Positions 1-44,369 are shown, counted from the first letter of the whole stretch. The stretch is 63,218 nt of DNA, filler included, from Basidiobolus ranarum (GCA_040143965.1; 25 parts of 25 records of this genome joined end to end with filler, not necessarily neighbours in it), one strand, 5' to 3'. Program-made: numbers and translations. Notes: a model not told the origin generated them from the sequence alone.

Positions 1-333
1 GAGCCTGTTGGAAGTGGTTTGGAGAATTAGAGGAATTGGTGGTTTTCACTTGTTGGTTTATTGAGTAGAAAGTTGACATTTATAGTTTTGTCAAGATGTA
101 AACAAACTAACATGTAGAATATGTCAAGGAAGGTCCCAGGAACATGTGTGCAAAGTTTGAGGCTTCTAGCACAAGTTTGAAAACTCTATATATCTGAGAA
201 CTTCTAAGTTGGTAAAAATATTCTAAGTAAATTCCAATTGAGAATAATTGATAATATCTTAGTGAATTATAAGGTAACTAAGTACTAAGCTATATATGGC
301 TATATAGATGTTTAGGCAATGCTAATTTCAACA
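1..333 (-). repeat. Copia family A LTR (LTR-A), nearly complete, inverted relative to 524-869
   Basis: Reverse complement of 524-869; ends ...GCTAATTTCAACA. Confidence 0.9.
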
Positions 334-869: not shown

Positions 870-1419
870 AGAACTTTGGTTGTACTAAAATACTGAGGAT
901 TCCTATGATAACAACAGACTGCAATTGTGTGATTTGCACCATCGAAGTATTGTCACCAATGTTCAAATGCAGCAATAGTTGCTAACAGTTTCTTGTCATA
1001 CATGTCTTGTTGATTTCTGCTGCAGAGAACTTTCTTGAGTAAAAGGCAATAGGGTGCAGTAGGTTATCATCAACTTACTGCAATAATACTGCTCCTAGAG
1101 CAAAGTCAGATGCAACAGTTTCAACAATAAATGGCTTGTCTAGCTTGGGGTGTGCCAGGATTGGTGCTGAGGTAAAAGCATTCTTTGAAGTTACAAATAC
1201 TTGTTGGCAAGATGGGTTCCAGTCAGATGCAAGTTCTTTCTTGGTAAGGTTGGTTAATGGTGCAGATATCTTGGAGTAGTGCATGACAAACCATTGGTAA
1301 AAGTTTGCAAATCCAAGGAAACATTGGACATCCTTCATGTTCTTGGAAGTATCCCAAGACAGAACAGATTCAACCTTCTCAGGGTTTATTCAGATGCCTG
1401 ATGGACTGATGTTAAATCC
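870..1419 (-). mobile_element. Degenerate Ty3/Gypsy pol fragment (RT connection / RNase H)
   Basis: DVQCFLGFANFY, FTSAPILAHP, ETVASDFALGAVLLQ and LHPIAFYSRK motifs, with stops and frameshifts. Confidence 0.88.
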
Positions 1420-1590
1420 TAGCTCATTTTACTCCCACAGATGTTCTGAACACAACCCCAGTGTAGTTCTCTGTATTTCCACCAAAATTTATAAATGCTT
1501 CATTTCTAGAACATAAATAATTATCTCACAAAAGCTATTCACAACCACACTTTTCTAAAGTTCCTCCAAACAGCCCATATTTTCCCAATA
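1420..1590 (+). repeat. Copia family B LTR (LTR-B), 3' half
   Basis: Matches the full copies at 43280-43658 and 62408-62788; ends TTTTCCCAATA. Confidence 0.88.
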
Positions 1591-1602
1591 GGTTATGAGC
1601 CC
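1591..1602 (+). promoter_or_regulatory. Primer-binding site GGTTATGAGCCC (complementary to the tRNA-iMet anticodon arm)
   Basis: Abuts the LTR-B end; same type as the Ty5/copia half-tRNA PBS; recurs at 15464, 19290 (-) and 49987. Confidence 0.88.
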
Positions 1603-1621
1603 CATGTTCAACCTTTACAGC

Positions 1622-2444
1622 ATGAAAGAAACCACTACTACCACTTTTATTGACTCAAGTGTTGAAAAGCTTGATGGAGAAAATTACAACTTCTATAAGT
1701 TCAAGATGCAAGTCATGCTGGAATACAGGGTGCTTTGGGATGTAGTCTCTGGAGATTGAAAGGAACCTTCTGACTCTTCTTTATTGGAAGCTGACAAGAA
1801 AAGAGACAAGAAGGCATTTAATGTCATTTATCAAAGTTTGAAGGATTCACCACTTGTGAATATTCAATATGCTGAGACTTCCCAACAAGCTTGGACTATA
1901 TTGGAAGAGTGTTATGAAGAAAAGAGTCTTGCTAAAAGACTCTGTCCCAGCCAAAAATTCTTCAATATACAGATGGAACAGTCTGAAAGCATGGTTACTC
2001 ATATTGCAAATGAGAGATCTTTGGCAAAACAACTGGAGAATATCGGTGCAACTTTACAGGAAGAAGATATCATTATGACTCTTCTAAGTAGTCCACCAGA
2101 ACAGTATTCAAACTTGGTCACAGTTTTGGAAGCAAGAGCTGACAAGATATCTTTGGAGTTTTTATTGTCAAGACTAATGGATCAGCATCTTGGATGTAAA
2201 AATTTGGAAAAGAATCTGAGGAAGTGGCTCTTTTGGAGCTGGAAAATGTAGCTTTGGCAAGTATGAAGGTAACAGAAGAAAGAAACCAGGCTTATGCTAT
2301 GGTTTTAACAAACCAGGACACTAGTTTAAAGATTGCAAATCAAGAAGTTAAAACTAAAAAGAGAAGTCAGAATATGCAAATCAGGTTTCAACCAAAGAGG
2401 AAGTTTTATTCATTTCTGCCCAATCAGTGACCTCTGAACAAGAC
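1622..2444 (+). mobile_element. Copia-B gag (UBN2-like), pseudogenised
   Basis: EKLDGENYNFYKFKMQVML, AWTILEECYE, IIMTLLSSPPEQYSNLVTVLE; in-frame stop near 1758 and frameshifts. Confidence 0.88.
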
Positions 2445-2544
2445 NNNNNNNNNNNNNNNNNNNNNNNNNNNNNNNNNNNNNNNNNNNNTTAATTAATTAA
2501 NNNNNNNNNNNNNNNNNNNNNNNNNNNNNNNNNNNNNNNNNNNN
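2445..2544. other. Artificial contig spacer (44 N + TTAATTAATTAA six-frame stop linker + 44 N); first of 24 such spacers
   Basis: The same 100-nt block recurs about every 2.53 kb (4988, 7530, 10070, 12610, 15149, 17687, 20225, 22761, 25296, 27831, 30366, 32898, 35430, 37960, 40490, 43018, 45546, 48073, 50600, 53126, 55651, 58175, 60698). Contig lengths never increase, falling from 2444 to 2421 nt. Confidence 0.99.
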
Positions 2545-3956
2545 ATATAATACAACAGTCAGACAAAGTAAAATGGCATTCAGTAAATGCTTTAATTAGA
2601 AAATCATAGCATTTCTCTCACTTATCATACAAATTTTATATAAAAACATATGCAACATATTACATCAAGCAGACAAAGCAACGGGGCATTCAATAAATAC
2701 TTCAATAAATAATAAAACACAAGCATTTCTCTTACCTATGATCCCTAGTGTATATAACAATGCAGCCTAATGTACAGCCAGATTACTCACATAGGTATAG
2801 CTGAATTCTCCATGTATATGATAATTTTAAGCAACTAACCATCCATTTATATTAAGGTATGCATTTCTACAGACACAAAAATAGTCTCTGCTTGAAGTAC
2901 TATACTTGGAAAAGCATAAGATTAGTTATTTGTCAGTCTTACCATGAGTTCTACATCATCTCACAATGTTATTAAAAAATCAAAGAACTTAGTAAGTGAG
3001 TGAATGATATATCTCAATTCCAATAAATTAATAGATGACAAAGCATTGATCAATAGCTCGGTGTTATCAGTGTGAAATACTCCATTTTGTTCTACATTAG
3101 CATTGCTATCAAAGTAACAAACAGGGTTTCTTCAATCTTTCATGTACAATTGATAACTACAATTTTACTGAATGCACACAATTATTGCACAATATTGATC
3201 ACTTGTCACTGATGAAATACTACGATTCAATGCTAATATAATGGTAACATCCTGATTACCTGTATCCATGTAACCAGTCATTAATATCTGGATGGAATCT
3301 TGGCTATAACTGATAATATCAATTGATTTGTAACACATTGCTGGAAATCCAAGGAATTCTTGTTCAGAATCTTCTTCTCCAACAAGGGAGCTTTTTGCTG
3401 AAATTGGGCTTGAAATCAAATCCTATTCTTCATCTAACCTGCAAAATCAAGTGTGTATTTGTGTCATTACAAATCATAAGCAGTATTGCTTGGTGACTTC
3501 TTGGTATATTTTTGGGCATTGTGTTTCCTGTATGTGTTCAATAAACAGGTCATCATGTAAAGCTTGGAGAGGTTTATGTTTTGATTGTAATAGAGAAGGT
3601 TACATTAATTTTGGCTCTATACACCTTATTATTTGCTAGTAGTGTTTGGGGCTTTATATATTCCATTTCAAGAATTTACAATACTCATTGTCATTTGTCA
3701 GTAATATTGAACACTTTGTAGAATTTGTTTTGAGTGTTTCCCAAACTAATTACTTCTTAGCACCATTCCTGTTAACACTGGTTTTTGAGCTCATTACTTT
3801 GTAAATAGTAAGTAATGCTACAGCTTATAAGATCCCCCATTTAAGCTTTGGCTCTGAAGCCTTAGTCTTAGTAACCATGTAGCTTATACATATCATCACT
3901 TAGTTCAACACCCTTTATTATTTATAGTAGGCTTACCTGTTGTTAAGTGTGGTTAT

Positions 3957-4314
3957 TGTAAAAGTACTTGAGAGCCTGTCAGATGTTAAAGTACTTGGGT
4001 TAGGAGAATTAGAGAACCTGATAGTTTTCACATATTGATCTATTGAGTGGAAAGCTGACATTTATAGTTTTGTCAAGATGTAAGTAAACTAATGTGTAGA
4101 ATGTGTTCAGGAATGTCTCAGGAATGTGTGTGCAAAGTTTGGGGCTTCTAGCAGAAGTTTGAAAAATCTCTATATCTGAGAACTTCCATGTTGGTGTCAA
4201 CATTCTAAGTAAGTTCCAATTGAGAATAATGCATAATATCTGAGTAAAATATAAGATAACCAAGTAATAAACTATATATGACTATAAAGTTGTTTAAGCA
4301 AAGCTAATATTAAT
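3957..4314 (-). repeat. Diverged LTR-A copy
   Basis: Colinear similarity with 1-333. Confidence 0.8.
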
Positions 4315-5089
4315 AGTTATGGTATGCAAGTTCAAAAGGAAATCCAGAGAATGCACTATGCTAGATATGTGGGCTTCATACAAACAACTTAGTCAAACAG
4401 ATATCATGGTTGATGAAGAAGAATTTATGAACATTTATATTTTATGAATCTCTACAATGAAATAAAACTTGGAAAGTTGATGCAAAAGATCAAGGTGACC
4501 AATTACACAAGTTAATATTAAAGCAATGTATTCTAGTTTTAGATGTGATCCCAATTCTGAGACATCAGTCCCTGCAGAGAAACTGTTGCTCACTATTGAC
4601 ATCAACAAACTCATTTAACCGGACTAGGGAAAACAACTCAGCATTGTGAGGAAAAAATCAATCAATATTTATACAGGCAAACATGCATACATCCTTCTAG
4701 CCAAAAGAATCATTATTCAAGATTTCTTCAAGGGCACCATTGATTGCATTTAGCAATATATTATGACATGCAACTTTAATAACAGTAAGGAATTATGTGG
4801 TACCAATCCTTTTGCCAACACCATGCAGCTCCCTTCTGAGAGACCTGTCTTCAGGAATATATTAATAGACCCACTGGATGAATATCAACCAGAACTAGAT
4901 AAAAAACTTTCAGAAATTTACCCTTCTCCATCAGAATCGTCTTTTTCATCCACTTACATCTTTGTCTCCTCTTTGATTTATGACATTNNNNNNNNNNNNN
5001 NNNNNNNNNNNNNNNNNNNNNNNNNNNNNNNTTAATTAATTAANNNNNNNNNNNNNNNNNNNNNNNNNNNNNNNNNNNNNNNNNNNNCT

Positions 5090-7529
5090 TTATATGATCT
5101 GCAATCTTGGCTTGGCTCTCCTTGCATGTATGTCTATGATTGTTCATCTGCTGGAAATATTTTGTTATCTTTCAATCGTTTTGCCAAACAACGCGATTCT
5201 GAAGCCGCTAAGCTTGGCCATGTGCCTTACACTCCTATGTCTGATTGCATACAATTAGCTGCTTGTGGCCCAAATGATATACTTCCCATGAACCCTGACT
5301 TGCCAGCTGATCTGTTTACCTGCTGTTTAACAACTCCTATTCAAATTGCTTTACAATGGTTTGTTTTACAAAATCCGTTGTTGAATAGCGTAGACGCAGA
5401 AATGATTTTGAAAACCCCCGGGAAACTAAGTGATCGTAGAACACCTTTGGGTGAGCTTAATTGGATTTTTACTGCGATTACGGATACTATTGCTTGGAGC
5501 GTACTTCCACACGATCTTTTTAAGAAATACTTTAGACAGGATATGATGGTAGCAGCAATGTTGAGAAACTTTTTACTAGCAGATCGAATTATGCGTTCTT
5601 ACAACTGTACTCCAATGTCAATGCCTCCACTGCCATCCACATGCCATCATCCACTTTGGAAATCTTGGGATTTCGCTGTTGATATGTGCCTATCTCAATT
5701 GCCAGCCTTATTGGCCATGGAGGAAGGTGGGCCTCCTGTTGAGTACAGTCCCAGCACATTATTCAACGAGCAGCTTACCGCATTCGAGATCTGGCTAACG
5801 CATGGATCTATCGCTAGAAATCCCCCAGAGCAATTACCTATTCTTCTTCAAGTTTTACTAAGTCAAGGCCATCGTCTTCGAGCATTAATTCTTTTATGTA
5901 AGTTTTTGGATCTTGGCCCCTGGGCAGTTGATCTAGCGCTTGCTGTTGGCATCTTCCCATACGTCCTGAAGCTTCTTCAAAGTCCCGCGGCTGATTTGAA
6001 GCCACTCCTTGTATTCATTTGGGCAAGAATTCTGGCAGTCGATTCATCATGCCAAAGCGACCTTCTTAAAGATGATGGATATAATTACTTTGTGCATGTT
6101 TTAGCTATTGAAAATGACCCATCACCCATTCCAAATATTTCAGAGCACCGTGCTATGTGTACATTTATTCTGAGTGTTCTTTGCAACGATTTTCTTCCTG
6201 GGAAGGAGGCATGCCTTCGAAGCAACGTTCTCACCCTTTGCTTGGTCCATCTGTCCGATGAAGATCCATTGTTGAGACAGTGGTCATGTTTATGTATTGG
6301 TCAGCAATGGGCGGGTTTTGCTGATGCCAAATGGCTCGGTGTACGTGAAAATGCTCATGAAAAACTCTGCGCTCTGCTATCAGACCCAGTTCCTGAAGTT
6401 AGGTCAGCCGCTATATACGCTCTCGGTCTCTTTATTGGGGACTTGGATAAGACCGAACAGGTTGTGAATATTGAGCATAATATCGCCATAGCAATGTTGG
6501 TTGCAACCAACGATGGTTCACCAATGGTTCGTCGTGAATTGGTTGTAGCACTTTCCAGTGTTGTTCACGGATATATAAGCATAATCCTTCAGATTGCCTA
6601 TGAACTGGTTGAAGAAGACAGGAAGCAGTCATCTCAAACTATTGATGAGCGAGTATTGCAACGCGGTCGTTCGGATCGAAGAAGCATCTCTGAACAAATG
6701 TTCCGTTCCGTTAGCCATAACTCTGCTTATACTTGTGTTTGGAAAGCTCTACTCAACCTATCTGTCGATCCTCATAATGACGTCTCTTCATATGCGGTCA
6801 AGGTTGTGGATTATGTACATTACCAACTCATCAACTCCTCAATGTCCGAAGCCGCAGCCTCTTCTCTCTTGCATCTACCTCCGCCCACTGGCCCAGGGAT
6901 TTCTGGCCTTGGGAATGGTCATACTTCTTCTATAACTGGGCTAGAAAACTCTTCTAACGGATTGCAATCTAACGGAAACCAACGGTTAACATCGAAAATT
7001 ACCTCCACCTTAAAACGCTCTGCCTCATTTTCGTTAAAAGCATTGGGGTACATGGCCGGTACGACTAATGAGACATCCTCAAACTCGAATCCAATCGATG
7101 CCAACTGCAATAGTCAAGTGAGACGTTCATTTACTAATAGGAATGAATCCTTCACACAATTAAATGAAATTGGTCAAGAGGGTGAAGATGGAGTTATTTC
7201 TAAAGCCAGCGATCCTTACGAAAGAATTACCCTTCCTCTTCATTCCGATTTTTACAATTGGTGTCGAGAATACTTTGCTGAACCTCAGATGCGTCCAGCT
7301 GAAGCAGATGAACCGGGAAGTACGAACTATAATGAACGTTTATGGCGCAGAACGCGAAATGAAAAAGTAATCTTTGAAAGCCATCCACTAAGTGAGCATG
7401 CAGGAACCAGTAAATGGGAAACTCCCTTGGGAACGATGTATACCGACTCTCAACCAACCTCTCTACTATTTCATCAATTCGAGAATCATCTTGTTGTTTC
7501 GGATAGTATAGGTGCGAGTGGTGTATGGG
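5090..7529 (+). CDS. KOG1: Raptor / TORC1 subunit Kog1 (Mip1), internal fragment, no introns in this span
   Basis: RNC-domain motifs YVYDCS, LPADLFTCCLTTPI, DRRTPLGELNWIFTAITDTIAW, PPEQLPILLQVLLSQGHRLRAL, then HEAT repeats and the start of WD40. The frame is open from the contig edge. Confidence 0.97.
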
Positions 7530-7629: not shown

Positions 7630-8939
7630 AAAAATTGCCATCTATTACTGGAAATATTTTTGTAAATCCCCTGATGAGGCATCCATGATGCGGTCTTAGA
7701 ATCAGCTGATGATATTGATGGGCAATACCTAAAATGCCACTCTTATATTGGAGGTGTTCTTTTCTTCTCAATATCCATCTCATACCACAACACAAACATA
7801 TAAAGAAACCCTGCTATTATTTGCTGCCAATTCTTCTGCTGAGGATGCCATAGTCTAGACGAAAAATAATTGCAAGTACAGTCACTGTACAAAGCCACCA
7901 GCTGCACAAAGCCTGGTGAATATCAGCAGTAAAAAGTGCACAAAATCAACTTCAGTTTTGCCCATGGTGTCCACTGATTATACTTTGTCTCACAGTTTTG
8001 ATAACACTGCTACTTGTCAAGATATCATGGAGTTACCACAGTTATATGACCAGATTTATGTAGATAGAAATGTAAATTTGGTCAAACCATTAAGTCCGGA
8101 CAACTTTGAAGACATGCTGCTAAATGTTGACCTTGGTTATTCCAGTATTGATGGTGGTATATCCAAAGCTGAAGAAGAAGGTGATGGTTTTGTTAGGGAC
8201 TCTTTGTTATTGGCAAGCATTAGTCCACTCATAACACTCACTGTAAAGGAAGCAGCTTTGATTATTAAGGAGTGGAGAGTTCAATCCAATCTTAGCAACC
8301 AGGTGTTTATTGGTTTTCTGGCACTTTTATCTTGTTTGATTGGCAACTGTTGCTTGCCACAGACCTGGTACAAGTGGAAAACACTTGTCAAACATATGAC
8401 TTATAATCCTTTAGTAATTGAACTACATTCATGTCTAAATGGTTGTTTGGCTTTCACCAGTATTCTCAAAACCTGAAGTAACAACCTGAAGTCAGGTACT
8501 ATTTGCACACAATTGGCAATCACTGAATCAGGTATATATTGTTCATATTGGGCTTACACATAGTTGATTCCCCATCTTAAAGTTTTGATGAAATAACCCA
8601 AATATAGATCATTGATCCAATACCAAAGTACTCACCATAAAGCTAATGGTATTATTGATGTACTTAATGGATATCACTACCAGAATCTGAAAAGTCAAGG
8701 GTTTTTTGAGAACACATATGATAATGCATTTGCATTGGCTCTGGATGGTTTCTCACTAAACAAATATACTGTTGGAAAGGCTTGCTGGTCAAAAATTTAA
8801 TTAACATAAATCTTCCTGCCTCTGAACAATACAAGAGTCATACTATTTGATATTATCCATCACTTCTGGAACTAAATCACCAGTGCTTATAGATAGCTTC
8901 TTGGAGCCTTTGATTGCAGAATTTGAGTGGTTATCTAAT
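7630..8939 (+). mobile_element. CMC/EnSpm transposon: intergenic spacer and 5' half of Tnp2-family transposase (ORF1), degenerate
   Basis: IELHSCLNGCLAF, DVLNGYHYQNLKSQGFFEN, ALALDGF, NLPASEQYK and IDSFLEPLIAE motifs; interrupted at 8940 by a second copy. Confidence 0.85.
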
Positions 8940-10069
8940 CCTTAACAGAAATGTGAGGATTGTTATTGCAGAGAAAGCCATCACAATTTTTATCTATTTA
9001 GGATTGTCTGTTTACTTGCCATTATAAAGTTGTCAAGTCAGATTTAATTTTAACAAATTTTTTCAGTTTCAGGAGTGATATTTCAAGATCAAGCAAAGTA
9101 GTTGCACATAATTGGCTACAATCTTGGCAAACTATGAATCAAGGCATGTGCAAACAATTTAACTCAAATTTTACCCATATACCACTTGATTGCTGAATTT
9201 TCACCTTGAAAATTCCTAGTCTCTTTAATGTATTCTCCTGAATAATTATATAGAATTCTTCATACCCAAGGTTGAGCTCATAGCCAACACAATTTTGTAT
9301 CAATATCTCAATCTAAGCCCACCATTGTATCAACATAGCTCAATCAAAATTCTTCCAGCTATTGAGCAGATATCCTGACATATTGTGTCACTCTGTATTA
9401 AGTTCTTCCCAGATATCTGCACAGTCAAAACCAGACTGAATTTCAAGTTGAATGTTCTTCTTCTGAAGCCACTTTCTGCATACTTGTACTGTGCTTTTCC
9501 TTTCATACTTTTGAGAATATTCTTCAAGCACTTTGACTATTTTTGTACATCCTTGTAGTGTGACACCACTGAGGGTGCTTTACAGTGTTTGTGCAGCTTT
9601 TTGCTTGCCTTTAACTTTGGGGCTAATTTCCACATTTTGAAAAGTACTGGTTGATGTTAAAAAGCCATGAGTTTTATATGCTGCTGTTTTGGCTTGTTTA
9701 GAGGTGCCAGGTGTTGGATAAACTTCCAAATTTAGCACTCTTCCAACTGGTGTACCTGGTTCCATGGTGAAATAAAGCTTTATTGCAAGTATATCTGACT
9801 CTGGAAATGCAGATCTTGTAATGGTGTGAAAGATTTGGTAAGTAGGACAGTAGAGCCTAAACTGACCAGCTCCTTTGCTCTTCCATTGGGTTTACTAACT
9901 TCCTGCTCCTTCAGTACTTCTTTCTTTGCTTTACTTTGTGTTCCAAGTCAATAATTGTGTACATTTTTGAGATGTCTCATTAATAGGCCTATACTAGCCC
10001 AATTGCCATTTGCTTGCAAAAACCCAGGATAAGCCACATGAAATAAGTCAAGAACCTTCAGAGTAACGC
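8940..10069 (-). mobile_element. CMC transposon left end (TIR CCTTAACAGAAAT) with 3' part of accessory ORF2
   Basis: Homologous to 43659-44365 (opposite strand). 9910-10069 matches 12830-12985, which links it to ORF2. Confidence 0.8.
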
Positions 10070-10169
10070 NNNNNNNNNNNNNNNNNNNNNNNNNNNNNNN
10101 NNNNNNNNNNNNNTTAATTAATTAANNNNNNNNNNNNNNNNNNNNNNNNNNNNNNNNNNNNNNNNNNNN

Positions 10170-11951
10170 ATGGGGTTCAGATGTGTGAATATTTTTTTAA
10201 AGCTAATATCATTGTATGTATTGGTGATACTTCTGCCATCAGTAAACTTAGAGGTTTTTGCAGGCACAATGCACTATCTTGCTGTAGATTTTGTCAAATC
10301 AATGGAGTCTATCCTCTCAGGCATATGCATTACTACTATCCAAATACAAAACTAAACTCCATGATTTTACCATCAAGTGCCCGGTCAGATTTCAATGTGA
10401 TCACTGGTATCAATTAACCAAATAATCAGTCTAAAATCAAACTTGGTATTTGCTATAAACCTAAGATTATATTGCCAAAGAGGATCAGCTGGAGCCAGAA
10501 CTTCCCATTAACCGCTATCCACTTGCTATTCAACAACAATGCAATACTGCTTACTCAGCTATATGATGGAAAATTCAATATCAATGATCCATTTAAGATA
10601 GGATCAAATTTGAATCAATTGGGAAGATGCTTGAAAACAGCAAGATACCATCATATTTTACCAGGACTTCCATCAAATTCCACTCATCCAGGCATTTATT
10701 CAAATGCAATGACTGGAAGTAATAGATTTGTATATATTCAAGTGATCTCTTGAAAAGACTTCTTCCCAATGAGTATTGGCAACGTTGGGAGTTGTTTGTA
10801 GATATTGTAAATACATTCTTACAGCATCAACTCACATTGGCAGATCTCAGGCAGATACAGTAACTGTGTGAAGATTATGGATATGAAAAACTTTATTACG
10901 GGCTTAAAAAAAAAAGACTAAATCTATGCAGGTATTCAATATATTCCCTGCTGCCTCTTTCACAATGCTTGGAGATTATAGGCCTTTGATATACATTTTG
11001 GGAGTTCCTAATGGAGTGCACCTGTGGTGAAATGATGCTCCATGTGAACTTGTCAGTATTACCATATGCTAATCTGATTAACAATGTATCAGAAAAATCA
11101 GTGATGGACATAATGCAATGGGTTAAGGTGACTCCAGGATATAGCACAATGACAGCCACAAAACCCAATCCATGGACACTGAGTAATTACCTCTATAATT
11201 TGGACTAATTTGTTTATGGGACTATCTGATGGTATTTCTAGGAAAGCTGCAAGACAGACTTCTTGGTGACATAGATTGAGATATGTAGTATTATTGTTTT
11301 AGCCATGGGGTAATCTATTCAAGTAATGACACATCAACTTGTGGCAGGTCATTTGTTGACTGCAACTTGGGGTTATATTATCTGAATTCTTTCATGAAAA
11401 GTTGACAAAATCCAACAGCTTATTCTCATTGTGAATGGTAACAAGAGTCAGTAACAAGAGTCACCTATTTGCCAAGTGTCAGTGCTATTTGAAATTCCAG
11501 ATGTTTAGCAACTTTCTGCTGTAGGTTTACTGGTAAAGAATACTGATGTTGTTGAGTTATATCTGATCAGTCAAGTAGATGCCTATGTAGAGACAAACAG
11601 AACAAGATTCTTGTTTTTTTGATTCTCATTTTGGCTAGAATACAAAGCCAAAAATTTCTAAATAAAGGCATGCATATTAATTTGACTTCCTAGAGCAGTT
11701 AATCTAGTAATTTGCCATTTGAAAATTATATTTTTTCAAAAATTGCTTCAAATTATATAATGCATGCCAAATATGAGGATATGTACTTTAACATGTGTTA
11801 ATACCATCAAGATACCATCTACAAACTGCTGTCACACCATCAAAATCCATGGCAGAATGCAAGTCACCAATATTGTGATGGTTCTCTGACAGTATTGCAA
11901 TTCCTAAGGGTGGATCCAATTTGGATCAAATCAAATTTATTTTTGTTAGGG
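10170..11951 (+). mobile_element. CMC transposon: 3' half of transposase and right end (...ATTTTTGTTAGGG)
   Basis: GDTSAISKLRGFCRHNALSCCRFC, FPLTAIHLLFNN and YTFWEFLMECTCGEM motifs; the terminus is shared with 15888, 17082, 20047 and 37849. Confidence 0.87.
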
Positions 11952-12609
11952 GAAGAAAAAGACAATGTTTCTGTTGTGGACTCTTTGTTATAAGCAAGCA
12001 TTAGTATGCCTGTAAGACCTATAGTGAAGGAAGCAGCTTTTATTATTGTGGAGTGGAGAGTTCAATAAAAGATTAGTAACAAGGTGTTAATTGCTTTTCT
12101 TCACTTGTACCACAGTTGATTGGCAACTGTTGCTTGCCACAAGCCTGGTACAAGTGGAAAAGACTTGTCAGTTGTATGACTATAATCCTTAAGTAATTAA
12201 ACTACCATCATGTCCAAATGGTGGTTTGGCTTTCACTGGTGATCTCAAAAGCCTGAAGTCATGTACTGTTTGCACACAATTGGCAATCACTGAATTGGAT
12301 AAATATCATTCAGATTTAAAATGAGTTGATGCCATAAGAATATATTAACAATATCCACACACAACTCCCAATGTTGCCAATACTTATCAGGCAGATATCT
12401 TTTCAAAATCCACCTGAATACATACAAATCCAATACTTCCAGTCTTTGCATTTGAATCAATGCCTAGATGGGTGGATTTTGATGGGAGTCCTGGTAAAAT
12501 ATGATCATATCTTGACGTTTTCAAGCATTTTCCCAATTGATTCAAACTTTGATTGTATCTCAAATGGCTGATTCATATTGAATTTTCCACTATATAGCTG
12601 AGTAAGTGG
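11952..12609. mobile_element. Further CMC transposase fragments (11952-~12320 plus, ~12320-12609 minus)
   Basis: Match 8180-8550 and the reverse complement of 10545-10840. Confidence 0.78.
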
Positions 12610-12709
12610 NNNNNNNNNNNNNNNNNNNNNNNNNNNNNNNNNNNNNNNNNNNNTTAATTAATTAANNNNNNNNNNNNNNNNNNNNNNNNNNNNNNNNNNN
12701 NNNNNNNNN

Positions 12710-12803
12710 ACTGAGTAATGTTCACTAACTTATATGTGCTATATAAAATGGTTAGGTGTATAAAGATAGAGATAACAAATATGATAAAGACAATAAACTT
12801 CAA
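12710..12803 (-). repeat. LTR-B fragment
   Basis: Matches 34995-35085. Confidence 0.75.
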
Positions 12804-12814
12804 AATTTCCTAAC

Positions 12815-13860
12815 ATCCTGCTCCTTGAGCAGTTCTGTCTTTACTTTTTTTTCTTTCCAAGTCAATAATGGCATACATTTTTGAGATGTCTCATGAATAC
12901 ACCTATACCAGCCCAATTGTCATTTGCTAGCAAAAACCCAGCATAAGCCACATGAAATAAGTCAAGAACCTTTAGAGTAACACCTGGTTTTTGGTTTTTC
13001 CACAATTGCCTCAAATCCAGGTGAATTTGGGCAAGATTCTTCACAGTTTCCAAAATGTTGAACTACTCATCAACAGAGCAAGTGACAGCAGCTCTGACAT
13101 TTAGAAATGCTTGGATTGCCAGCTTTCCTATGATATGTCTAATTTCATGTGCCCAAGGAATTATGGGTTGTTGTGTAAACTTAATGCTCCAACACATATT
13201 CTGCTCTGCCAGATTGTCATGGTGACTCTCATATATGGTGCAGCATTGATTAGATTCCCATACAACCATAGACAGAGGGTGCCGCATGTTGCAGTAGCTC
13301 AAGTACAGCATTCTGAAAATCTGATATCATTGTTGAGTGATTCTCTAACTGTTGACTAATTGCTTCCAAACGCAGCATTAATTTCAATATTGTGTAATTA
13401 TTGCTTGTCATGGCCTATATGGCAACTTGGTAGTTTTTGCTAATGATGGCATACAAATCATTATGATGTTGTGGCTGCAATTACCTTGTTGTCATAATGC
13501 TATCCGAATCTCCTACAGAAAGTTGCTCAATAGTTGGCAAAGTAACCATTTTGGAAGTTAATGGTCTTGATGGTGTTTCTGTTGAACTTTGCTCAACTGT
13601 TCATTTACTACATAATTGGGTGATTAAAATCCCTTCACTTGCATTATCATTACAAAGGAACACATATGGTAAATTGATCAATGCTTCATCATTACTTGAG
13701 TTAGTTTCTGGCCAGCGAATGCCTTCCAAAATGGAAGTGGATTGCTAGACTGCTCATCAATTAAGTCCTCTGTTCTTGCTGGTTTCTTTCCTTTCATGCC
13801 AGCAGGCTTTCACTAGGAAGCCAACTTTCATTTTGATTTTAAATGCTTTTTGAATGACAT
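12815..13860 (-). mobile_element. CMC transposon accessory ORF2, 5' part, degenerate
   Basis: Starts ATGTCATTCAAAAAGCAT; homologous to 50806-51630 and 56928-57207; contains LKVLDLFHVAYAGFLLANDNWAGIGVFMRHLKN. Confidence 0.75.
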
Positions 13861-14069
13861 TGAAATTTTCAGATGCTAAACTTAGTGTAGTGAAATTGCT
13901 TAGAAACAGCTTATAATAAACCAAAATTGCCATTCATTACTGAAAATAACTTGAAAATCCCCTGATAACTCATCTGTGACACTGTCTCAGAATTAGCTGA
14001 TAATATTAATGTGCTATACCTAATACACCACCCTTACATTGCATGTATTCTTTTTCCTATAATATCCTA

Positions 14070-15052
14070 CTCACGCTATAATCCAAATACTTAAAGAAGC
14101 CCTGCTATTATTGTCACAAATTCATGTGCTATGAAGCCAGAGAATTTACAAAAAACAATCACCAGCTTGGTCACTGTACAAAGCCACCAGCTGCACAAAA
14201 CCAGGTGAATATCAATGGTAATAAGTGCACAAAATTGACTTTAGATTTGCCCACTGAGTCCACTGCCCATGCTTTGCCTCAAAGTTTTGGTATTGCAGCC
14301 AAAAGCCAAGATACTGCAGAGTTAACACATTTGTATGACCAGAATGATATAGGTAGAAATGCAACCTTGGTCAAACTAGTAAGTCCAGACAACTTTAAGG
14401 ACATGATGTCAGATGTTGACCTTGGCTATTCCAGAACTGATGGTAGTATATCAAAAGTTGAAGACAAGGACAATGGTTTTGTTATAGACCCTTTGTTAGT
14501 GGCAAGCATTAGTCCACTCATAACACTTACAGTAAAAGAAGTAGCTTTGATTATCAAGGAGTGGAGAGTTCAATCCAATCTTAGCAACATGGTGTTTATT
14601 GGTTTTCTTTCATTTTTATTACAGTTTATTGGTAAACTGTTGCCTGCCACAGACCTCACTCAAGTGGAAAACACTTGCAAATAGTAAGACTTATAATCTT
14701 TGAGTAGTTAAACTACCTTCAAGTCCAAATGGTTGTTGGCTTTCACCAGTGATCTCAAAAACATGAAGTCAAGCATTGTTTGCACACAATTGGCAATCAC
14801 TGCATGAGGTAAATATCATTTGTATTTGGCTTCCATATGATTGATTCCCATCTTAAAGTTTTGATGAAAACACCCAAATATACATTATTGATCCAACACC
14901 CAAGTACTCACTGTAAAGCTGTTGGGATTACCAATATGTTTTATGAATATCACTACCAGAATCTTAAAAGTCAAGGTTTCTTTGAGAACACACATAATCA
15001 TGAATCTGCATTGGTGCTGGATGGTTTCTCACTTAACAAACACACTGTTTGA
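14070..15052 (+). mobile_element. CMC transposase ORF1, 5' part, degenerate
   Basis: KKPCYYCHKFMC, SISPLITLTVKE, YQNLKSQGFFEN and LVLDGF motifs. Confidence 0.85.
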
Positions 15053-15054
15053 AA

Positions 15055-15148
15055 TGTCACTATTAGAAACTGGACAAGGACTGGGAACAATGACAAGAGG
15101 CTAGAAGGCAGGAAAGTACTTGGGTGTAGACCACAAGACAAGACAGGA
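15055..15148 (-). repeat. Gypsy LTR (LTR-D) 3' end fragment
   Basis: Reverse complement of 19065-19158. Confidence 0.75.
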
Positions 15149-15887: not shown

Positions 15888-15998
15888 ACCTAACAAAAAT
15901 ACAATTGATTTGATCCAGATAGCATTCATCCTGGTGGAGAACAATACCATCTGAGGACTGTCACAATATTGATGGCTTGTATTCTGCCAGAGACTTTA
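15888..15998 (-). mobile_element. CMC right-end fragment
   Basis: ACCTAACAAAAATACAATTGATTTGATCC matches the terminal consensus. Confidence 0.75.
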
Positions 15999-16905: not shown

Positions 16906-16922
16906 ATTTTATGTACATATCT

Positions 16923-17081
16923 TGTCATAATAAGGAACTGGACAAGGACTGGAAACAACAACAAGAGGCCAGAAGGCAAGACAGTACTAGGGTATAGACC
17001 ACAAGGCAACACAAAACAAGACTGGACAGGGAAGATACTTTGGCAAGATTCTCTATTGATGGCTGGCATTAATCAGACTGA
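16923..17081 (-). repeat. Gypsy LTR-D fragment, interrupted by a CMC insertion
   Basis: Reverse complement of 18995-19158. Confidence 0.8.
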
Positions 17082-17686
17082 CCCTAACAAAAATAAAATT
17101 GATTTGATCCGGATTGGATCCACCCTCCAAAAAAGCAAAACTGTCAGAGAACCATCACAATATTGCTAGCTTGCATTCTGCCAGGGATCTTGATGGTGTG
17201 ACAGCGGTTTCTTGATTGTATCTTAACTGTATTCATACATGTTAAAGTATTGATCCTTAAGTTTGGCATGCATTATTCAATAGCCAGCAATTTTTGCAAA
17301 AATATAATTTTCAAATGGCAAATTACTGGGTTTACTGCTGTAGGAATTCAAATTAATATGCCTGCCTTTATTTAGATATTTTGGGCTTTGTATTCCAGCC
17401 ATAATGAGAATCAAAAAATACAAGAATCTCGTTGTGTTTAGTCTCTACATATGCACATACCTGACTGATTAGACATAACTCAACAACATCAATATGCTTT
17501 ACCAGCAAACTGATGGTAGAAAAAGTGCTACACATCTGAAATTTTGAATAGCACTGACACTTGGCAAATAGCTGTCTCTTGTTACCATTCACAATGAGAA
17601 TAAGCTCTTGGATTTTGGCAAATTTCTGTAAAGAATTCAGCCAATATATCCCCAACTTGCAGTCAACAAATGTCCTGCCACAAGTA
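17082..17686 (-). mobile_element. CMC right end and transposase C-terminus
   Basis: Begins CCCTAACAAAAAT; reverse complement of 11335-11951. Confidence 0.87.
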
Positions 17687-17786: not shown

Positions 17787-18617
17787 TGGGTATATCTGCC
17801 AATCTCTCCACTGCCTTTCATCCCCAATATGATGGCCTAACACAAAGAGTCAATTAAGTTTTTGAGCAATACTGGCAATACATTATTAACTATAATCAAG
17901 ATATTTGGACCCAACTGTTGCCTCTTGCTGAGCTTGCTTACAACAACTCTTATCCTACTTCAATAAAACAAACTCCTTTTGTGGCAAATTATGGATTACA
18001 TCCTCAATTCACAATTCACCCTCCATCTAATATACCTTGCACTGCTGCCTCAGGTTGTGCCACTTTCCTTAAAGACATCCATAAACAGTTAATGTCCAGG
18101 TTGGAGCATGCTCAATCTGTATATAAGAGCTTTGCTGATAAGAAAAGAAAGCTAAACCCAGATCTCAAGCCAGGAGATTATGTAGTGCTAATTTGTAAAA
18201 ATATCAAGACCACCAGACCTTGTGACAAACTTGATCATAAAAAACTATGGCATTTTAAGATTTTTAAGCAAATCAATTCAGTAGCTTTCTGCCTTGAGCT
18301 CCCAGACAATTTCAAAGTCAACAATGTGTTCCATGTAGCTGTCCTAGAGTCACATTCCAGAAATACCTGCCAAGCCTGATCCAATAGCCCACCCCCAGTG
18401 ATTCAAGTTGAAGAACAGCCTGAATATGAAGTTAGCAAGATTCTGGATCCAGAATTTTTCAGCGTAAAATGCAAAATTTAGTGGACTGGAAGGGATGTAG
18501 AACACATGATCAATCATAGAAGCCAGCAACAAATCTTTCCAACTTTGAGGAACTTTGCAAAGAGTTTCATGAAGCCTACCCTGAAAAACCTGGCCCTATG
18601 ATCACTAAAGGGGATAC
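17787..18617 (+). mobile_element. Chromovirus-type Gypsy integrase, chromodomain and PPT, degenerate
   Basis: STAFHPQYDG, LPLAELAYNNS, KTTRPCDKLDHK, VFHVAVL and EYEVSKILD motifs; AAAGGGGATAC precedes the LTR. Confidence 0.9.
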
Positions 18618-19158
18618 TGTCATGATTCTGGTCATGGCATACTCAGCAATTGCAAATAGAACTCCTCAAAATACTAGAATCTGACATCATATCTGCTGCA
18701 CCATCCTTTCTTGGCAAGCTTGCACTAGTTCATCCAATTTACCATATATGGAAGTCATGTTTTTTAGATCATTCCATGAAACCTAGCCAATCATGTCAGC
18801 CCACACATAGTGTATTTCCACTAAGACCTTCCATGGAAAGTCGCCTGATCATTGTTACATCATCCCTTCTTGTATTGCTCCTTGAAGTCTAAAACACCCC
18901 AACATTTGAACTTTCCACAATATATTCCCTATTAAGTACACTATGTTTCACCTTGCAATATCTATATAAGCTCCATGTTATCCTTGATCAGATCTCAGTC
19001 TGATTAACACCAGTTATCAATAAAGATTCTTGCCAGAGTATCCTCCCTATCTTGTCTTGTCTTGTCTTGTCTTGCCTTGTGATCTACACTTAAGTACCTG
19101 CCAGCTTTCTGGCCTCTTATTGTAGTTTCCAGTCCTTATCCAGTTCCTTATTGCGACA
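18618..19158 (+). repeat. Gypsy 3' LTR (LTR-D, 541 bp, TGTCA...CGACA) containing a (CTTGT)n tract
   Basis: TG...CA ends after a PPT; homologous to 57208-58009. Confidence 0.88.
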
Positions 19159-19265
19159 TCATCAGCCCAAATACTAAGAATATCAATGAAGCCAATATCC
19201 ATTGACAGTGTTGGTGAAGAGCTGAAACCAACAAAACCTATAGCTCATAAGTTCCCACCCAAATT

Positions 19266-20046
19266 CATAGCTGTAAAGGTTGTAACATGGGGCTCATAAC
19301 CTATTGAGAAAATATGGGCTGTTTGAAGGAACTTTAGAAAAGTTGAGTTGTGAATAGCTTTTGTAAGATAACCATTTATTGTCCAGAAATGAAGCATTTT
19401 TACATTTCGGTGGAAATACAGAAAACTAACAGTGGGGTTGTGTTCAGAACATATGTGGGAGTAAGATGAGCTATCTTTGTGGCAATTTGGATGGGTTTGA
19501 AACTTTCAATATGGAATTGCCAATTCTCACATTATTCACATATATATATATATTTCAATTTGCAGCTAAGTAATATTTGACTAAGTAATCTTAACTAACT
19601 TATATGTTATATATAAAATAGTTATTTGTATAAAGATAGAGATAACAAATATGATAAAGCCAATATTGTTCAACACTCCCACTCATCTAAATATTCATAT
19701 ATCTTAATCATAACTTAAATCTTAATTCTTCAAATTTTGGCTTGGGTAATGGTTTAGTAAGGATGTCAGCAATCATGTCCCCAGCTGGACAGGACTCTAG
19801 TTGGATGTGCATATTGACAATAGCTTCCCTAACAAAGTGATGTTGAATGTCAATGTGCTTACTTCTAACTTGAAATTTGGAATTTTTAGCTAAAGAAATA
19901 CAACTTGGATTAACCTTGATATTATGGTGAGTGAACTTTGAAAAATACCAAAGTCATTGAACAGTTTCCTGAACCACATAGCCTCCTTTGTTGCATGTGA
20001 TGCTGCCATGTACTCTGCTTCAGTGGTTGAAATTTCTATGGTGGAT
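19266..20046 (-). mobile_element. Copia-B junction: RNase H - PPT - LTR-B (19302-19675) - PBS (19290-19301) - gag leader
   Basis: SKHIDIQHHFVRE and DMIADILTKPL on the minus strand; PPT on one side and PBS on the other side of a single LTR. Confidence 0.87.
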
Positions 20047-20224
20047 CCCTAACAAAAATAGAATTGATTTGATCTGGATCAGATCCACACTCCAAAATAG
20101 CAAAACCATAAGAGAACTGTACAATATTGTTGGCTTGCATTCTGCCAGGGATTTTGATGATGTGACGTTGGTTTCTTGACGGTATCTTAGCAGTATTCAA
20201 ACATGTTAAAATATTGATCCTCAA
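20047..20224 (-). mobile_element. CMC right end inserted in Copia-B pol
   Basis: Begins CCCTAACAAAAAT, preceded by AT. Confidence 0.85.
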
Positions 20225-26427: not shown

Positions 26428-27248
26428 AATGCTTTCATCATCTTTTGAATGTGCAATAATGTCTAAAAGTACTTTTCCTAAATATACCACATATGTAAAA
26501 TAAACTGTTTCCAAAATGGTAAATAACATTGTGCTGGATAGTGCCCAAGCATGGTAATTTGTGCTGGCTCACTTTTTGGCTGGCATGATTGGGCTCAATA
26601 AAATGAAACAAGTCTTTTAATTTCACAATCAATTATTTGATGTTATAGCACCATCCTCTATTGTGAGAACTAACCTGAGCAAATCCAATATAGTAGGCCC
26701 TGAGTAAGAATGGAAATTGCTGAGATCTACAGTGTTACATAGTCTAACCCTAAATAATGTGACCTACCCAATGATGCATATAGCAACTAATTATTGCTTA
26801 TCATATGCCAAATAACATAGATAAATCATATGTAATGTTAAATACTTTGTGATTGGCCTTGTTACATGTGTAAGTAGCCATCTATCAACATGCAATTAGG
26901 TGTGTATATATTTCCCTGAACATGGGATCAGCAAGTGTATGGTACTGCACCACTAAGGAACTTTGACATTTATAGGCTGGGGCATGATGTCAATCAATCT
27001 GAGAAAGTATGTAAATGTCTGTGAGCTGGTACAATTAGTATATATATGAGAGCAGTTGATCAGTAAGTGATCATTACCATTCTGAGTTCACTTAGGTATT
27101 GGAAAGACACTCAGTAATAGAGAGCCTCTTCTGTTAAAAAATTAATCTCAAGATAGTATCATTTATATTCATTTTTACCTAGCAAGCCTGACTAAATTGG
27201 CTTTAACTTCTGCACCAACATGTAAGTTTGCATAACCTAGGAAATTGC

Positions 27249-27626
27249 TATTGGGAAAATATGGGCTGTTTGGAGGAGCTTTAGAAAAGTGGAGTTGTGA
27301 ATAGCTTTGTGAGATAATTATTTATTGACCAGAAATTAAGCATTTATACATTTTGGTGGAAATACAGAAAACTAACACTGGGGTTGTGTTCAGAACATCT
27401 GTGGGAGTAAAATGAGCTATCTTTGGGGCAATTTGGACGAGTTTGAAATTTCCAATATGTAATTGCTAATTCTCACATAATTCACATATATATAAAATAT
27501 ATGTTCCAATTTGCAGCTAAGTGATATTTGACTAAATAATGTTGACTAACTAATATGTGATATATGAAATAGTTAGGTGTATAAAGATAGGGATAACATA
27601 TATGATAAAGACAATAAACTTCAACA
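27249..27626 (-). repeat. Solo LTR-B (378 bp) with 5-bp TSD ATTGC
   Basis: ATTGC at 27244-27248 and 27627-27631 flanks TATTGGG...TTCAACA. Confidence 0.93.
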
Positions 27627-27930: not shown

Positions 27931-28485
27931 CAAATTCTGCAATCAAAGGCTCCAAGAAGCTATCTATAAGCACTGGTGACTTAGGTCCAGATCAGAGGAA
28001 AATCCGTGGCTAAATATTTTGAGGAAAATGCTGATCTTTCACCTATTCGTAATTCACTAACAAAGATGCAACATGTCCATTACGAACAACAATCAGATAA
28101 TCTTCAGAAGTTTCATGAGCAATTAGCTTCCTATAGTCTTAAATTTCCACAAAGGAAGCAAAGATCAGAGGAGTCCATGATCAAATCCCTTGAAAAATCA
28201 TCGGATGGCTTACGACAGGCTTTACAAAAGTTTGAGACTCAGTTGATGGTATACCAAGAAATTGGGAAGTCTAGGGGAAGAACTATGAATGAAGTGAGAT
28301 ATGCATTTTATGATTTAACTAGATCTTTAGGTACTGCAGGTCACTTTTCCGTCTACAAATTACAGGCTGAACATCGTGCTGGGTTACCAGCGCAAATTCG
28401 TTCAGAAATTAGAAGTATCAAAGGACTTCTGCTAAGTAGAAGGATGCCACTCAATAATCCTTTTCAACAGTCAACGGTGACTTGA
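27931..28485 (+). CDS. Hypothetical protein, probable 3' part
   Basis: 159-codon ORF with coiled-coil-like composition in CpG-normal DNA; no recognised motif. Confidence 0.4.
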
Positions 28486-34711: not shown

Positions 34712-35429
34712 TATTGGGAAAATATGGGCTGTTTGGAGGAACTTTAGAAAAGTGGAGTTGTGAATAGCTTTGTGAGATAATTATATATTGTCCAGAAATA
34801 AAGCATTTTCATATTTTGATGGCAATATATATAAATAACACTGGGGTTGTGTTCAGAGCATCTGTGGGAGTAAAATGAGCTATGTTTGGGGCAATTTGGA
34901 CAAGTTTGAAATTTCCAATATAGAATTGCTAGTTCTCACATTATTCACTTATATATAATATATGTTCCAATTTTCAGTTAAGTGATATTTGACTAAGTAA
35001 TGTTAACTAAGTTTTATGTGATATATGAAATAGTTAGGTGTATAAAGATCAAGATAACAAATATGATAAAGACAATAAACTTCCACACTCCCACTCAACT
35101 AAATATTCATATATCTTAATCCTAACTTAAATCTTAATTCTTCAAATTCTGGCTTGGGTAATGGTTTGGTAAGGATGTCAGCAATCATATCCTCAGTTGG
35201 ACAGCACTGCAGTTGGACATGCTTATTCTCAATAGCTTCCCTAACAAAGTGATGTTAAATGTCAATGTGCTTACTATTGGGAAAATATGGGTTGTTTGGA
35301 GGAACTTGAGAAAAGTGCAGTTGTGAATAGCTTTGTGAGATAATTGTTTATTGTCCAGAAATAAAGCATTTATACTTTTTGGTGGAAATACAGAAAACTA
35401 ACACTGGGGTTGTGTTCAGAACATCTGTG
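34712..35429 (-). mobile_element. Copia-B: partial LTR-B (35275-35429), RNase H end, PPT, full LTR-B (34712-35087)
   Basis: Two same-orientation LTR-B copies separated by 187 bp that encode SKHIDI...ADILTKPL. Confidence 0.87.
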
Positions 35430-35529: not shown

Positions 35530-37195
35530 ATTGTGGAATTTGAATGGTTATCTAATGGGGTTCAGATGGGTGATTATTTTATTAAAGCTAATATCATTGA
35601 ATGTATCGGTGACACTCCTGCCATTGGTTAACTTGGAGGTTTTTGTGGACACAATGCACTATCTTGCTGAAGATTTTGTAAAATCCATTGAGTTTACTCT
35701 AACAGGAATACACATTACTACTATCCAAATACAACACTAAACTTCATGATTTTACCATCAAGAGCCCAGTGAGATTTCAATATGATCACCGATATCAATT
35801 CACCAAATAGTCAGTCTAACATCAAACTTGGTATCAGCCGTAAGCCTAAGATTAGATTACTAAAGGGGATTAGCTGGAGCCAGAGCTTCCCATTAGGCAC
35901 TATGCACTTACTATTTAACAACATTCCAATACTGCTTACTCAGCTATATGGTGGAAAATTCAATATAAATGAGCCATTCAAGATAGCATCAGAGTATGAA
36001 TTGAATAGGAAAATGCTTGAAAATTCCAAGATACCCTCATATTTTACCAGGACTTCCATCAATATCCACTCATCTAGGCATTTATTTACATACAAAGACT
36101 GGAAGTATTAGATTTGTATATATCCAAGAGGTATTTTGAAAAGATTTCTGCCTGATAAGTATTGGCAACATTCTGAGTTGTTTGTCAATATTGTTAATAT
36201 ATTCTTATGGCATCAACTCACATTGGCTGATCTCTGACAGATATAGCAATTGTGCAAAGATTTTGTAATTAGATATGAGAAACTTTATTACAGGTTTAAA
36301 GAAGATAGACTGAATCTATGCTTGTATTCAATAGATACCTTGCTGCATCCTTCACAATGCTTAGAGAATATGGGCACTTGCTATACATTCTGGGAGTTCC
36401 CAAAGGAGCCCACCTGGGGTGAAATGATGCTCCATGTGAAATTGTCAGTATTACCATATGCTAATCTGATTAACAATTTATCAGTAAAATCAGTGATGGA
36501 TGTAATTGAATGGGTTAAGGAGACTCCAGAGTATATTTAACCTGTCAACAAAGGGCTCTTTTCAATGTGCTGATGCATTTTTGCAATGTATTGAGCACAA
36601 TAACAGCAACAAGGCTCAATCCATGGACACAGATTAAGCATCTCTGTAATTTGGACTAATTTGTTTGTATGATTATCTGATGGTTTTTCTAGGAAAGCTG
36701 CAAGACAGACTTCTTGATGAGATAGATCAAGATATGCAGTATTACCACTTTAGCCATGGGGTAATCTATTCAGGCAATGACACAGCTACCACTGGTTTAA
36801 CATTTATTGACTGCAAGTTGGGGTTAAATTGGCTGAATTCTTTTCAAGAGTTTGCCAAAATCCAAGAGCTTATTCTCATTGTGAATGGTAACAAGAGCCA
36901 ATCATTTTCCAAGTGTCAGTGCTGTTCAAAATTTCAGATGTTTAGCAATTTTTCCACCATTAGTTGGTTGGTGTAGATTATTGATGTTGTTGCATAATGT
37001 CTGATGAGTCAAGTATGTGCATATGTAGAGACTAAACACAACAAGATTCATGTATTTTTTGATTCTCATTATGCTGGGAATTAAAAGCCAAAAATATCTA
37101 AATAAAGGCATGCATATTATTTGAATTACTACAGCAGAAAACCTAGTAATTTCCATTCAAAAATCAGATTTTTGCCAAAATTGCAAGAAATTTAA
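35530..37195 (+). mobile_element. CMC transposase 3' half, degenerate
   Basis: FPLGTMHLLFNN, YEKLYY and YTFWEFPKEPTWGEM motifs; colinear with 10170-11760. Confidence 0.87.
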
Positions 37196-44365: not shown

Positions 44366-44369
44366 TATA

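Follow-up and report, generated by a model that had tools for sequence, protein, structure and literature searches.

Positions 7630-15052 of a 63,218-nucleotide stretch of Basidiobolus ranarum DNA (GCA_040143965.1; the whole stretch is called the window below) raise the question of whether the repeat fragments found there derive from a single transposon. A first-pass annotation, made from the sequence alone, had proposed a reconstructable CMC/EnSpm element of ~5.1-5.2 kb with two head-to-head genes. Our data make it probable that the fragments are dead and truncated copies, nested within one another, of a single abundant CMC-group cut-and-paste family, whose autonomous element would be ~5.1 kb long and carry two divergent genes, a Tnp2-type transposase and a second open reading frame (ORF), ORF2, on the opposite strand.

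The window is composed of 25 unrelated contigs, ordered by length (2421-2444 bp) and separated by N44-TTAATTAATTAA-N44 spacers. Therefore, the flagged span is not one locus but three separate, unlinked contigs:

7630-10069: contig c4
10170-12609: contig c5
12710-15148: contig c6

Element fragments were detected in 11 of the 25 contigs (c4, c5, c6, c7, c8, c12, c15, c18, c21, c23 and c25) by blastn against the tile described below, and not in ten as first counted. They comprise ~14.5 kb of the 60.8 kb of non-N sequence, that is, about a quarter of these repeat-rich contigs belongs to a single transposon family.

An all-against-all blastn, in which the copies were mutually 77-88% identical, yielded a chain of overlapping fragments, and blastn of all contigs against the resulting tile followed. 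The tile joins c4 8940-10067, c6 12982-15054, c4 8779-8939 and c5 10172-11951 to a total of 5142 bp, in agreement with the length previously summed from overlaps. The first piece contains the left end and the adjoining 1.1 kb, and its last 177 bp (9891-10067) overlap c6 12806-12981. The c6 piece runs to 15054, where it is cut by another repeat; c4 7631-8939 overlaps c6 13923-15054 and extends 161 bp beyond it; and c25 62789-63218 bridges into c5 10171-10469, from which c5 extends to 11951, the right end. The tiling brings the two ends into inverted orientation, a consistency check that could have failed. The fragments that carry the layout are as follows (aa, amino acids of the transposase):

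7631-8939, plus strand: host copy in c4, tile 2070-3362; aa 1-325; interrupted at 8939/8940 by a nested left end
8940-10067, plus strand: left arm, tile 1-1128; C-terminal two thirds of the minus-strand ORF2, including its shared TGA stop (9141-9139)
10170-11951, plus strand: right arm, tile 3361-5142; aa 326-694 at 10172-11214, then ~725 bp of non-coding DNA and the right terminal repeat
11952-12310, plus strand: interior of a further copy, tile 2607-2967; aa 73-201; the c5 copy is inserted into it
12322-12606, minus strand: inverted fragment of another copy, tile 4025-3741; aa 452-548
12806-15054, plus strand: longest contiguous piece (c6), tile 952-3201; N-terminal part of ORF2 on the minus strand (13549 to 12806), N-terminal part of the transposase on the plus strand
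27931-27991, minus strand: 61-bp fragment at a contig start, tile 3348-3288
35530-37198, plus strand: best-preserved transposase fragment (c15), tile 3336-4951; aa 317-652, 80.7% identical to the relative P0002 (see below); 8 stops in 339 codons
43658-44365, minus strand: left-arm fragment (c18), tile 709-1; ORF2 C-terminal domain on the plus strand of the window, 130 stop-free codons
50813-53125, plus strand: copy fragment (c21), tile 1130-3215; aa 1-275 (plus strand) and the N-terminus of ORF2 (minus strand), interrupted by a tRNA-like repeat of 284 bp
55753-57207, minus strand: copy fragment (c23), tile 3180-1730; aa 1-264 and upstream spacer; candidate ATG at 56716-56714; without ORF2
62789-63218, plus strand: bridging fragment (c25), tile 3231-3660; aa 282-424; links the c4-type and c5-type pieces

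The two genes lie on opposite strands and in the same order in c6 (12806-15054) and c21 (50813-53125). The divergent layout had been reported three times; it stands in these two contigs and falls in c23 (55751-57207), which lacks ORF2 because this copy starts at tile 1730 and misses the ORF2 start codon (tile 1696) by 34 bp. At the outer sides, the left end and the C-terminal part of ORF2 occur together in c4, as do the right end and the transposase C-terminus in c5. The start codons are ~523 bp apart from Met to Met (c6 13549 to 14073), considerably more than the ~210-bp spacer initially given.

The ends of the element were defined by motif counts and by the points at which similarity between copies breaks off. 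The left-end motif CCYTAACAGAAAT has 6 matches at ≤1 mismatch versus 0.32 expected (≥6 in 0 of 100 shuffles), and the right-end motif ATTTTTGTTAGGG has 5 matches versus 0.20 expected. The terminal inverted repeats (TIRs) and right-end fragments are:

8940-8952, plus strand: left TIR CCTTAACAGAAAT of the nested c4 copy; exact motif; similarity to the c18 copy begins here
44353-44365, minus strand: left TIR CTCTAACAGAAAT of the c18 copy; one mismatch; aligned with c4
11939-11951, plus strand: right TIR ATTTTTGTTAGGG of the c5 copy; from 11952 onward the sequence is the interior of another copy
15888-15997, minus strand: right-end fragment with a degenerate TIR, ACCTAACAAAAAT read inward; one mismatch
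17082-17685, minus strand: right-end fragment, tile 5142-4528; TIR 17082-17094
20047-20223, minus strand: right-end fragment, tile 5142-4965; TIR 20047-20059
37849-37959, minus strand: right-end fragment, tile 5142-5032; TIR 37849-37861

These are the same two left sites (8940, and 44365 in reverse) and the same five right sites (11951, 15888, 17082, 20047 and 37849) that the first-pass annotation had named. Similarity between copies ends at the exact first base of all seven termini, and the flanks outside are unrelated. Over 13 bp the left-end consensus is CC(C/T)TAACAGAAAT; the right ends, read inward, are CCCTAACAAAAAT at 11951, 17082, 20047 and 37849, and ACCTAACAAAAAT at 15888. The c4 left end and the right end are identical at 11 of 13 bases and thus form imperfect 13-bp inverted repeats, so that TIRs of the kind expected for the CMC superfamily are present in two left and five right copies. 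Additionally, an inverted block, CAGAGAA(AG)CCATCACAAT, is common to both arms (left +30..51, right +62..83). The CCCTAAC ends agree, as had been suggested for CCCTA, with the CMCWR code, which PMC3227409 quotes together with CCC as terminal consensus, and they fit the CCC core of TRC elements (PMC1636069). The terminal CCCTAAC / GTTAGGG (e.g. 11945-11951 and 17082-17088) also equals the canonical TTAGGG telomere repeat unit plus one base, a likeness that may be coincidental.

The dinucleotide AT adjoins 4 of the 7 termini (AT frequency in the window 0.099, P=0.0026, post hoc). The insertion point of the nested c4 copy follows ...TCTAAT at transposase codon 325/326; contig c5 starts with ATGGGG... 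at that same codon, and the uninterrupted c15 copy reads TCTAATGGGG there. If c5 represents the other flank of the c4 insertion, the target-site duplication would be AT, no copy here carrying both ends. A 2-bp target-site duplication, AT, is hinted at by these junctions, and would match the CCC-ended TRC elements (PMC1636069); for the CMC superfamily as a whole, duplications of 2-5 bp are expected.

The transposase family was identified through an intact relative. Translation of c15 35530-36546 with its 8 stops as X (P0001) and a search with this sequence retrieved one long relative, P0002, of 698 aa (81% identity, 99% coverage), encoded on a 5233-bp contig of an ENA assembly. P0002 matches Transposase_21 (PF02992; E=1.9e-16, 60.3 bits, cut-off 28.6) and, over the same residues and with a lower score, DUF1258 (PF06869; 40.4 bits, cut-off 33.1). 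It has no other Pfam match at E≤1, hence no DUF4218 and no DUF1280 (PF06918). Of the two domains singled out by the first-pass annotation for an HMMER search, Transposase_21 is therefore found and DUF4218 is not. A motif search located D260, D344, C363xxC366, H585xxxH589 and E609 in P0002, their roles being assigned from context; these DDE, C(2)C and H(3)H motifs match the CMC/CMCT signature of PMC12730594. The second D and the CxxC are kept in c5 and c25, and H(3)H is mutated in c5 and c15.

P0002 is one ORF that spans the window fragments. The tblastn alignments place aa 1-325 at c4 7958-8939, aa 326-694 at c5 10172-11214, aa 282-424 in c25, aa 317-698 in c15 and N-terminal parts on c6, c21 and c23, with 53-81% identity over the main aligned stretches. 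Therefore, the fragments of c4/c6 type and those of c5/c15 type belong to a single gene as its two halves, an independent confirmation of this join in the tiling, and the proposal of a Tnp2-family transposase on the plus strand holds.

The transposase start was located by comparing the copies. The codon aligned with the first residue of P0002 is TTG in all four window copies, suggesting that the initial 'M' of P0002 is probably a non-ATG start chosen by the gene caller; 697 bp separate the ORF2 start from this residue. The majority consensus of the copies opens the transposase frame from about c6 14010, with the first Met at the c6 14073 position, where the candidate start codon is ATG in c23 (56716-56714), ACG in c6 and ATA in c4. 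In c6 the N-terminal part accordingly extends from 14073, or from 14247 by the P0002 alignment, to 15049, and the transposase would be about 756 aa long from the candidate Met. A plus-strand 114-codon ORF in the spacer of c21 (51414-51755) was considered as a transposase 5' exon and rejected: it has no Pfam match and is closed in the other copies and in the consensus. Further searches with P0002 gave 588 pattern matches in a JGI metagenome scan, none of them confirmed, and no match among PDB sequences at E≤10; its AlphaFold model (predicted local distance difference test, pLDDT, 27.6) was too poor for use.

ORF2 was assessed by asking which stops are shared between decayed copies. For the C-terminal half, c18 43658-44167 was compared with c4 9648-9139 over 170 codons. 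The ORF2 frame contains 3 and 5 stops, of which only the final TGA is shared, in contrast to 5-8 shared stops in each of the other five frames. For the N-terminal part (c6 13549-13268 versus c21 51378-51097), 94 codons were compared, beginning at a Met present in both copies; no stop is shared in the ORF2 frame, in contrast to 3-5 in the others. When the two C-terminal read-throughs were combined into a profile (A1) and run against 1.84 billion representatives, 6 matches were obtained at E≤1e-3: two partial gene models of Basidiobolus ranarum (1.6e-54 and 4e-46), a 99-aa fragment, two diverged ENA proteins (122 aa, 9e-16; 112 aa, 7e-8), and a 2771-aa protein matched in 12 short stretches, which we regarded as spurious. 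The diverged ENA pair is 26-38% identical to the Basidiobolus sequences and retains D[IV]WEE[LV]N..WH...GYPPD.W followed by (Q/E)WW.L; conservation of this motif at such identity needs selection on the protein. Moreover, P0012, a Basidiobolus ranarum model of 140 aa from a 4189-bp contig, maps to tile 1150-782, extending 22 bp past the join at tile 1128/1129. The conserved Met, the shared stop and P0012 across the join place the start of ORF2 near tile 1696 (c6 13549) and its end near tile 200 (c4 9139), a length of ~500 codons. Judged from these comparisons, ORF2 is a real ancestral ORF of ~500 codons on the strand opposite the transposase, and its assignment to the minus strand agrees with the original proposal.

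Several observations weigh against the reconstruction and must be set against this evidence. On the transposase side, none of the 93 stop-to-stop ORFs of the window has a Pfam transposase match at E≤0.01, none of 13 chosen window pieces has one at E≤10, the 339-aa c15 read-through lacks a Pfam transposase match, and DUF4218 is absent even from P0002. The termini CCCTAAC...GTTAGGG are not the CA..TG / CACTA that PMC12730594 and PMC4158355 give as typical of EnSpm.

One rival explanation holds that ORF2 is not a working gene but a captured piece of a host gene or a decayed passenger, and that the transposase acts alone. In line with this, the ORF2 read-throughs and their relatives have no Pfam family at E≤0.09, Transposase_24 included; the ORF2 domain has no ESM Atlas match above 0.76, which is below the useful range; and no intact full-length relative was found, there being none of 174-555 aa in a 5.8-billion-protein set. 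A search for shorter proteins returned four matches, all from NCBI Basidiobolus ranarum entries. The AlphaFold model of the domain is all-helical and unusable (pLDDT 48.6). Substitutions between c4 and c18 by codon position (0.165/0.229/0.182) show no third-position excess, which fits neutral decay after insertion and is uninformative on coding. However, two copies place ORF2 equally far from the left end, and two others place it equally far from the transposase; its ancestral frame is open over 94 and 169 codons, with a conserved Met and a shared stop; and its diverged relatives keep a motif that needs selection on the protein. A two-ORF structure is, in addition, the rule in CACTA elements (PMC4158355). 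We therefore consider a passenger ORF2 unlikely.

Another rival holds that the tile merges two related elements, one bearing ORF2 with CCYTAACAGAAAT ends and one bearing the transposase with CCCTAACAAAAAT ends, brought together in c6 through nesting or through a contig wrongly assembled from short reads of both. The two left-type and five right-type ends do differ consistently, at one or two positions, and past base 13 the arms share only one, shifted, block. Both ends occur together in no single contig of the 25, and no full-length copy was seen among them; of the contiguous copy sought in the first-pass annotation, the ORF2-transposase join is present in c6, and the two ends together are not. 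The left arm is linked to the remainder by one 177-bp overlap, at 87.6% identity, via c6. The end of contig c4 and the truncation of the c21 copy coincide at c6 12982, which could in principle be an element boundary. The 5233-bp contig encoding the intact transposase is the source of none of the four shorter ORF2 matches, and self-nesting of the family is frequent in the window.

Against a boundary at c6 12982, the ORF2 frame is continuous across it, P0012 from a separate contig maps across the same join, and a motif search at ≤1 mismatch found no end motif at c6 12982 or c21 50813. The left flank of c21 is CpG-bearing unique DNA without a repeat match in the window, as fits a truncation. Moreover, c6 and c21 independently show the same order of ORF2 N-terminus, spacer and transposase, and the block CAGAGAA..CCATCACAAT is common to both arms. 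Overall, a merger of two elements is quite improbable.

All copies of the element are dead, with stops and frameshifts in their frames, including the best-preserved one in c15. The element DNA is depleted of CpG, with an observed/expected ratio of 0.066 (30 CpG in 14,025 bp) versus 0.77-1.04 in four host ORFs (5090-7528, 53233-53988, 54087-54800 and 59713-60696). The copies are also nested: c4 holds a copy within a copy, and in c5 one copy ends, on its right, within the coding sequence of another, beyond which comes a piece of a third copy in inverted orientation.

Other repeats adjoin or interrupt the element. A 284-bp repeat at 51890-52173 (c21) and 39951-40234 (c16), 90% identical, contains a 73-nt tRNA-Ser(aga)-like module on the minus strand (51918-51990 and 39979-40051), and in c21 it is inserted in the transposon spacer. 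The c18 left end adjoins a copia-like pol fragment (44366-44696) with a weak SH3_retrovirus match at 44397-44696. Another repeat family, at 15054-15145, 16920-17081, 18470-19159 and 57207-58172, adjoins the transposon with a sharp terminus in c6, c7 and c23. A repeat of ~560 bp resembling a long terminal repeat (LTR) occurs in at least six contigs and truncates transposon copies in c6, c18 and c25:

19301-20044: LTR-like repeat
27248-27626: LTR-like repeat
34712-35429: LTR-like repeat
43118-43659: LTR-like repeat
49607-49985: LTR-like repeat
62044-62788: LTR-like repeat

The Pfam scan, which covered all 93 stop-to-stop ORFs of ≥80 aa, further identified copia and gypsy pieces, Raptor, eEF1A, trypsin and adenylosuccinate synthetase among the ORFs, a content that points to a eukaryotic source.

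Taken together, we propose the following model of the single two-gene element. From left to right, the autonomous element would consist of the 13-bp left end, the minus-strand ORF2 of ~500 codons, whose end lies ~200 bp inside the left tip, ~520 bp of non-coding spacer, a plus-strand Tnp2-type DDE transposase of ~700-756 aa, ~725 bp of non-coding DNA and the right end ATTTTTGTTAGGG. Both genes would be transcribed outward from the central spacer. The transposase may bind the 13-bp ends, and perhaps also the subterminal block CAGAGAA..CCATCACAAT, and would excise and reinsert the element with a short duplication, probably of 2 bp and often AT. ORF2 may serve as a lineage-specific helper, comparable to TnpA of En/Spm in role and not in sequence. 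After insertion, copies were probably silenced; they lost nearly all CpG, and LTR fragments, a tRNA-bearing solo LTR and other members of the family later broke them up.

Membership of the transposase in CMC (EnSpm/CACTA-related) is supported by the sequence comparisons. Transposase_21 is a CMC marker in PMC5751038, and PMC3985635 assigns Transposase_21 to CACTA/EnSpm, DUF1258 to Mirage and DUF1280 to Chapaev. The Tnp2-type domain is recognized through P0002, the decayed window pieces lying below every threshold. CCC-ended CACTA relatives are already known, and so is the CMC expansion in Basidiobolus, described as 'huge expansions of CMC-EnSpm' (PMC5751038). What is new is a concrete structural model (ends, two genes, size) for an expansion that the 2017 survey gave only as counts. 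The orphan opposite-strand ORF2 is a candidate new helper protein for Tnp2-type transposition and deserves specialist attention. Otherwise, the element is an ordinary, long-dead transposon, of use mainly in annotating the repeats of a badly fragmented genome and as a substrate in which CpG loss confined to repeats is visible. We tentatively raise a more specific and rather doubtful possibility: a CMC lineage of early-diverging fungi, placed between the EnSpm and Mirage profiles, in which an orphan helper of ~500 aa with a Trp-rich helical C-terminal domain is expressed divergently from a shared central promoter of ~0.5 kb and binds the subterminal block common to both arms.

The element was compared with known CMC groups. 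DUF1280, the Chapaev domain, is not among the P0002 matches at E≤1. Pfam includes a Plavaka model, and P0002 matches only Transposase_21 and DUF1258 in Pfam at E≤1. Fungal EnSpm and Plavaka elements of the CMCT clade (Kojima 2025, PMC12730594) likewise have fungal hosts and short duplications, but their termini, CAC..GTG in EnSpm and TGT..ACA or CATCA..TGATG in Plavaka, are unlike those found here, and no TET/JBP gene is present in the Basidiobolus element. P0002 passes the cut-off of DUF1258, the domain equated with Mirage (PMC3985635), at 40.4 versus 33.1 bits, yet its Transposase_21 score on these residues is the higher one (60.3 bits). A 2-bp duplication, hinted at here, is also known for Mirage. 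The genes of plant CACTA elements usually share one strand, whereas the Basidiobolus ORF2 is on the strand opposite the transposase. Plant CACTA or En/Spm elements (PMC4158355), which encode a Tnp2/TnpD transposase and a TnpA/ORF2 protein, likewise have a Transposase_21 domain, two ORFs between short TIRs and a subterminal motif in both arms. Their termini are CACTA...TAGTG versus CCCTAAC here, and their DUF4218 and Transposase_24 domains are unmatched in the Basidiobolus element, in which a 3-bp duplication is not supported. The strict EnSpm/CACTA features, namely CACTA or CAC..GTG termini with a 3-bp duplication, DUF4218 and a TnpA-like (Transposase_24) ORF2, were thus not found.

A close counterpart by description is the TRC ('transposon related to CACTA') group of animals and fungi, which includes SmTRC1 of Schistosoma mansoni and a ~5.2-kb element of Tribolium castaneum (DeMarco et al. 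2006, PMC1636069). TRC elements have CCC ends, 2-bp duplications and fast-evolving second proteins. Compared by description, they likewise encode a Transposase_21-type transposase and a fast-evolving second protein without detectable relatives elsewhere; their ends likewise start with CCC (CCCTAG in Tribolium versus CCCTAA here), and the Tribolium element is near the size of the Basidiobolus element. The 2-bp duplication reported for TRC is hinted at here by AT at 4 of the 7 ends and the c4/c5 AT overlap. TRC TIRs measure 27-54 bp, in contrast to the imperfect 13 bp of the Basidiobolus element. A literature search turned up no described case of an opposite-strand ORF2 in CACTA/CMC elements; because Repbase and supplements lay outside this search, the arrangement is not claimed as unreported. 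SmTRC1 produces its proteins by alternative splicing of one transcription unit, whereas the Basidiobolus ORF2 is encoded on the opposite strand, and this opposite-strand ORF2 is the most distinctive trait of the element.

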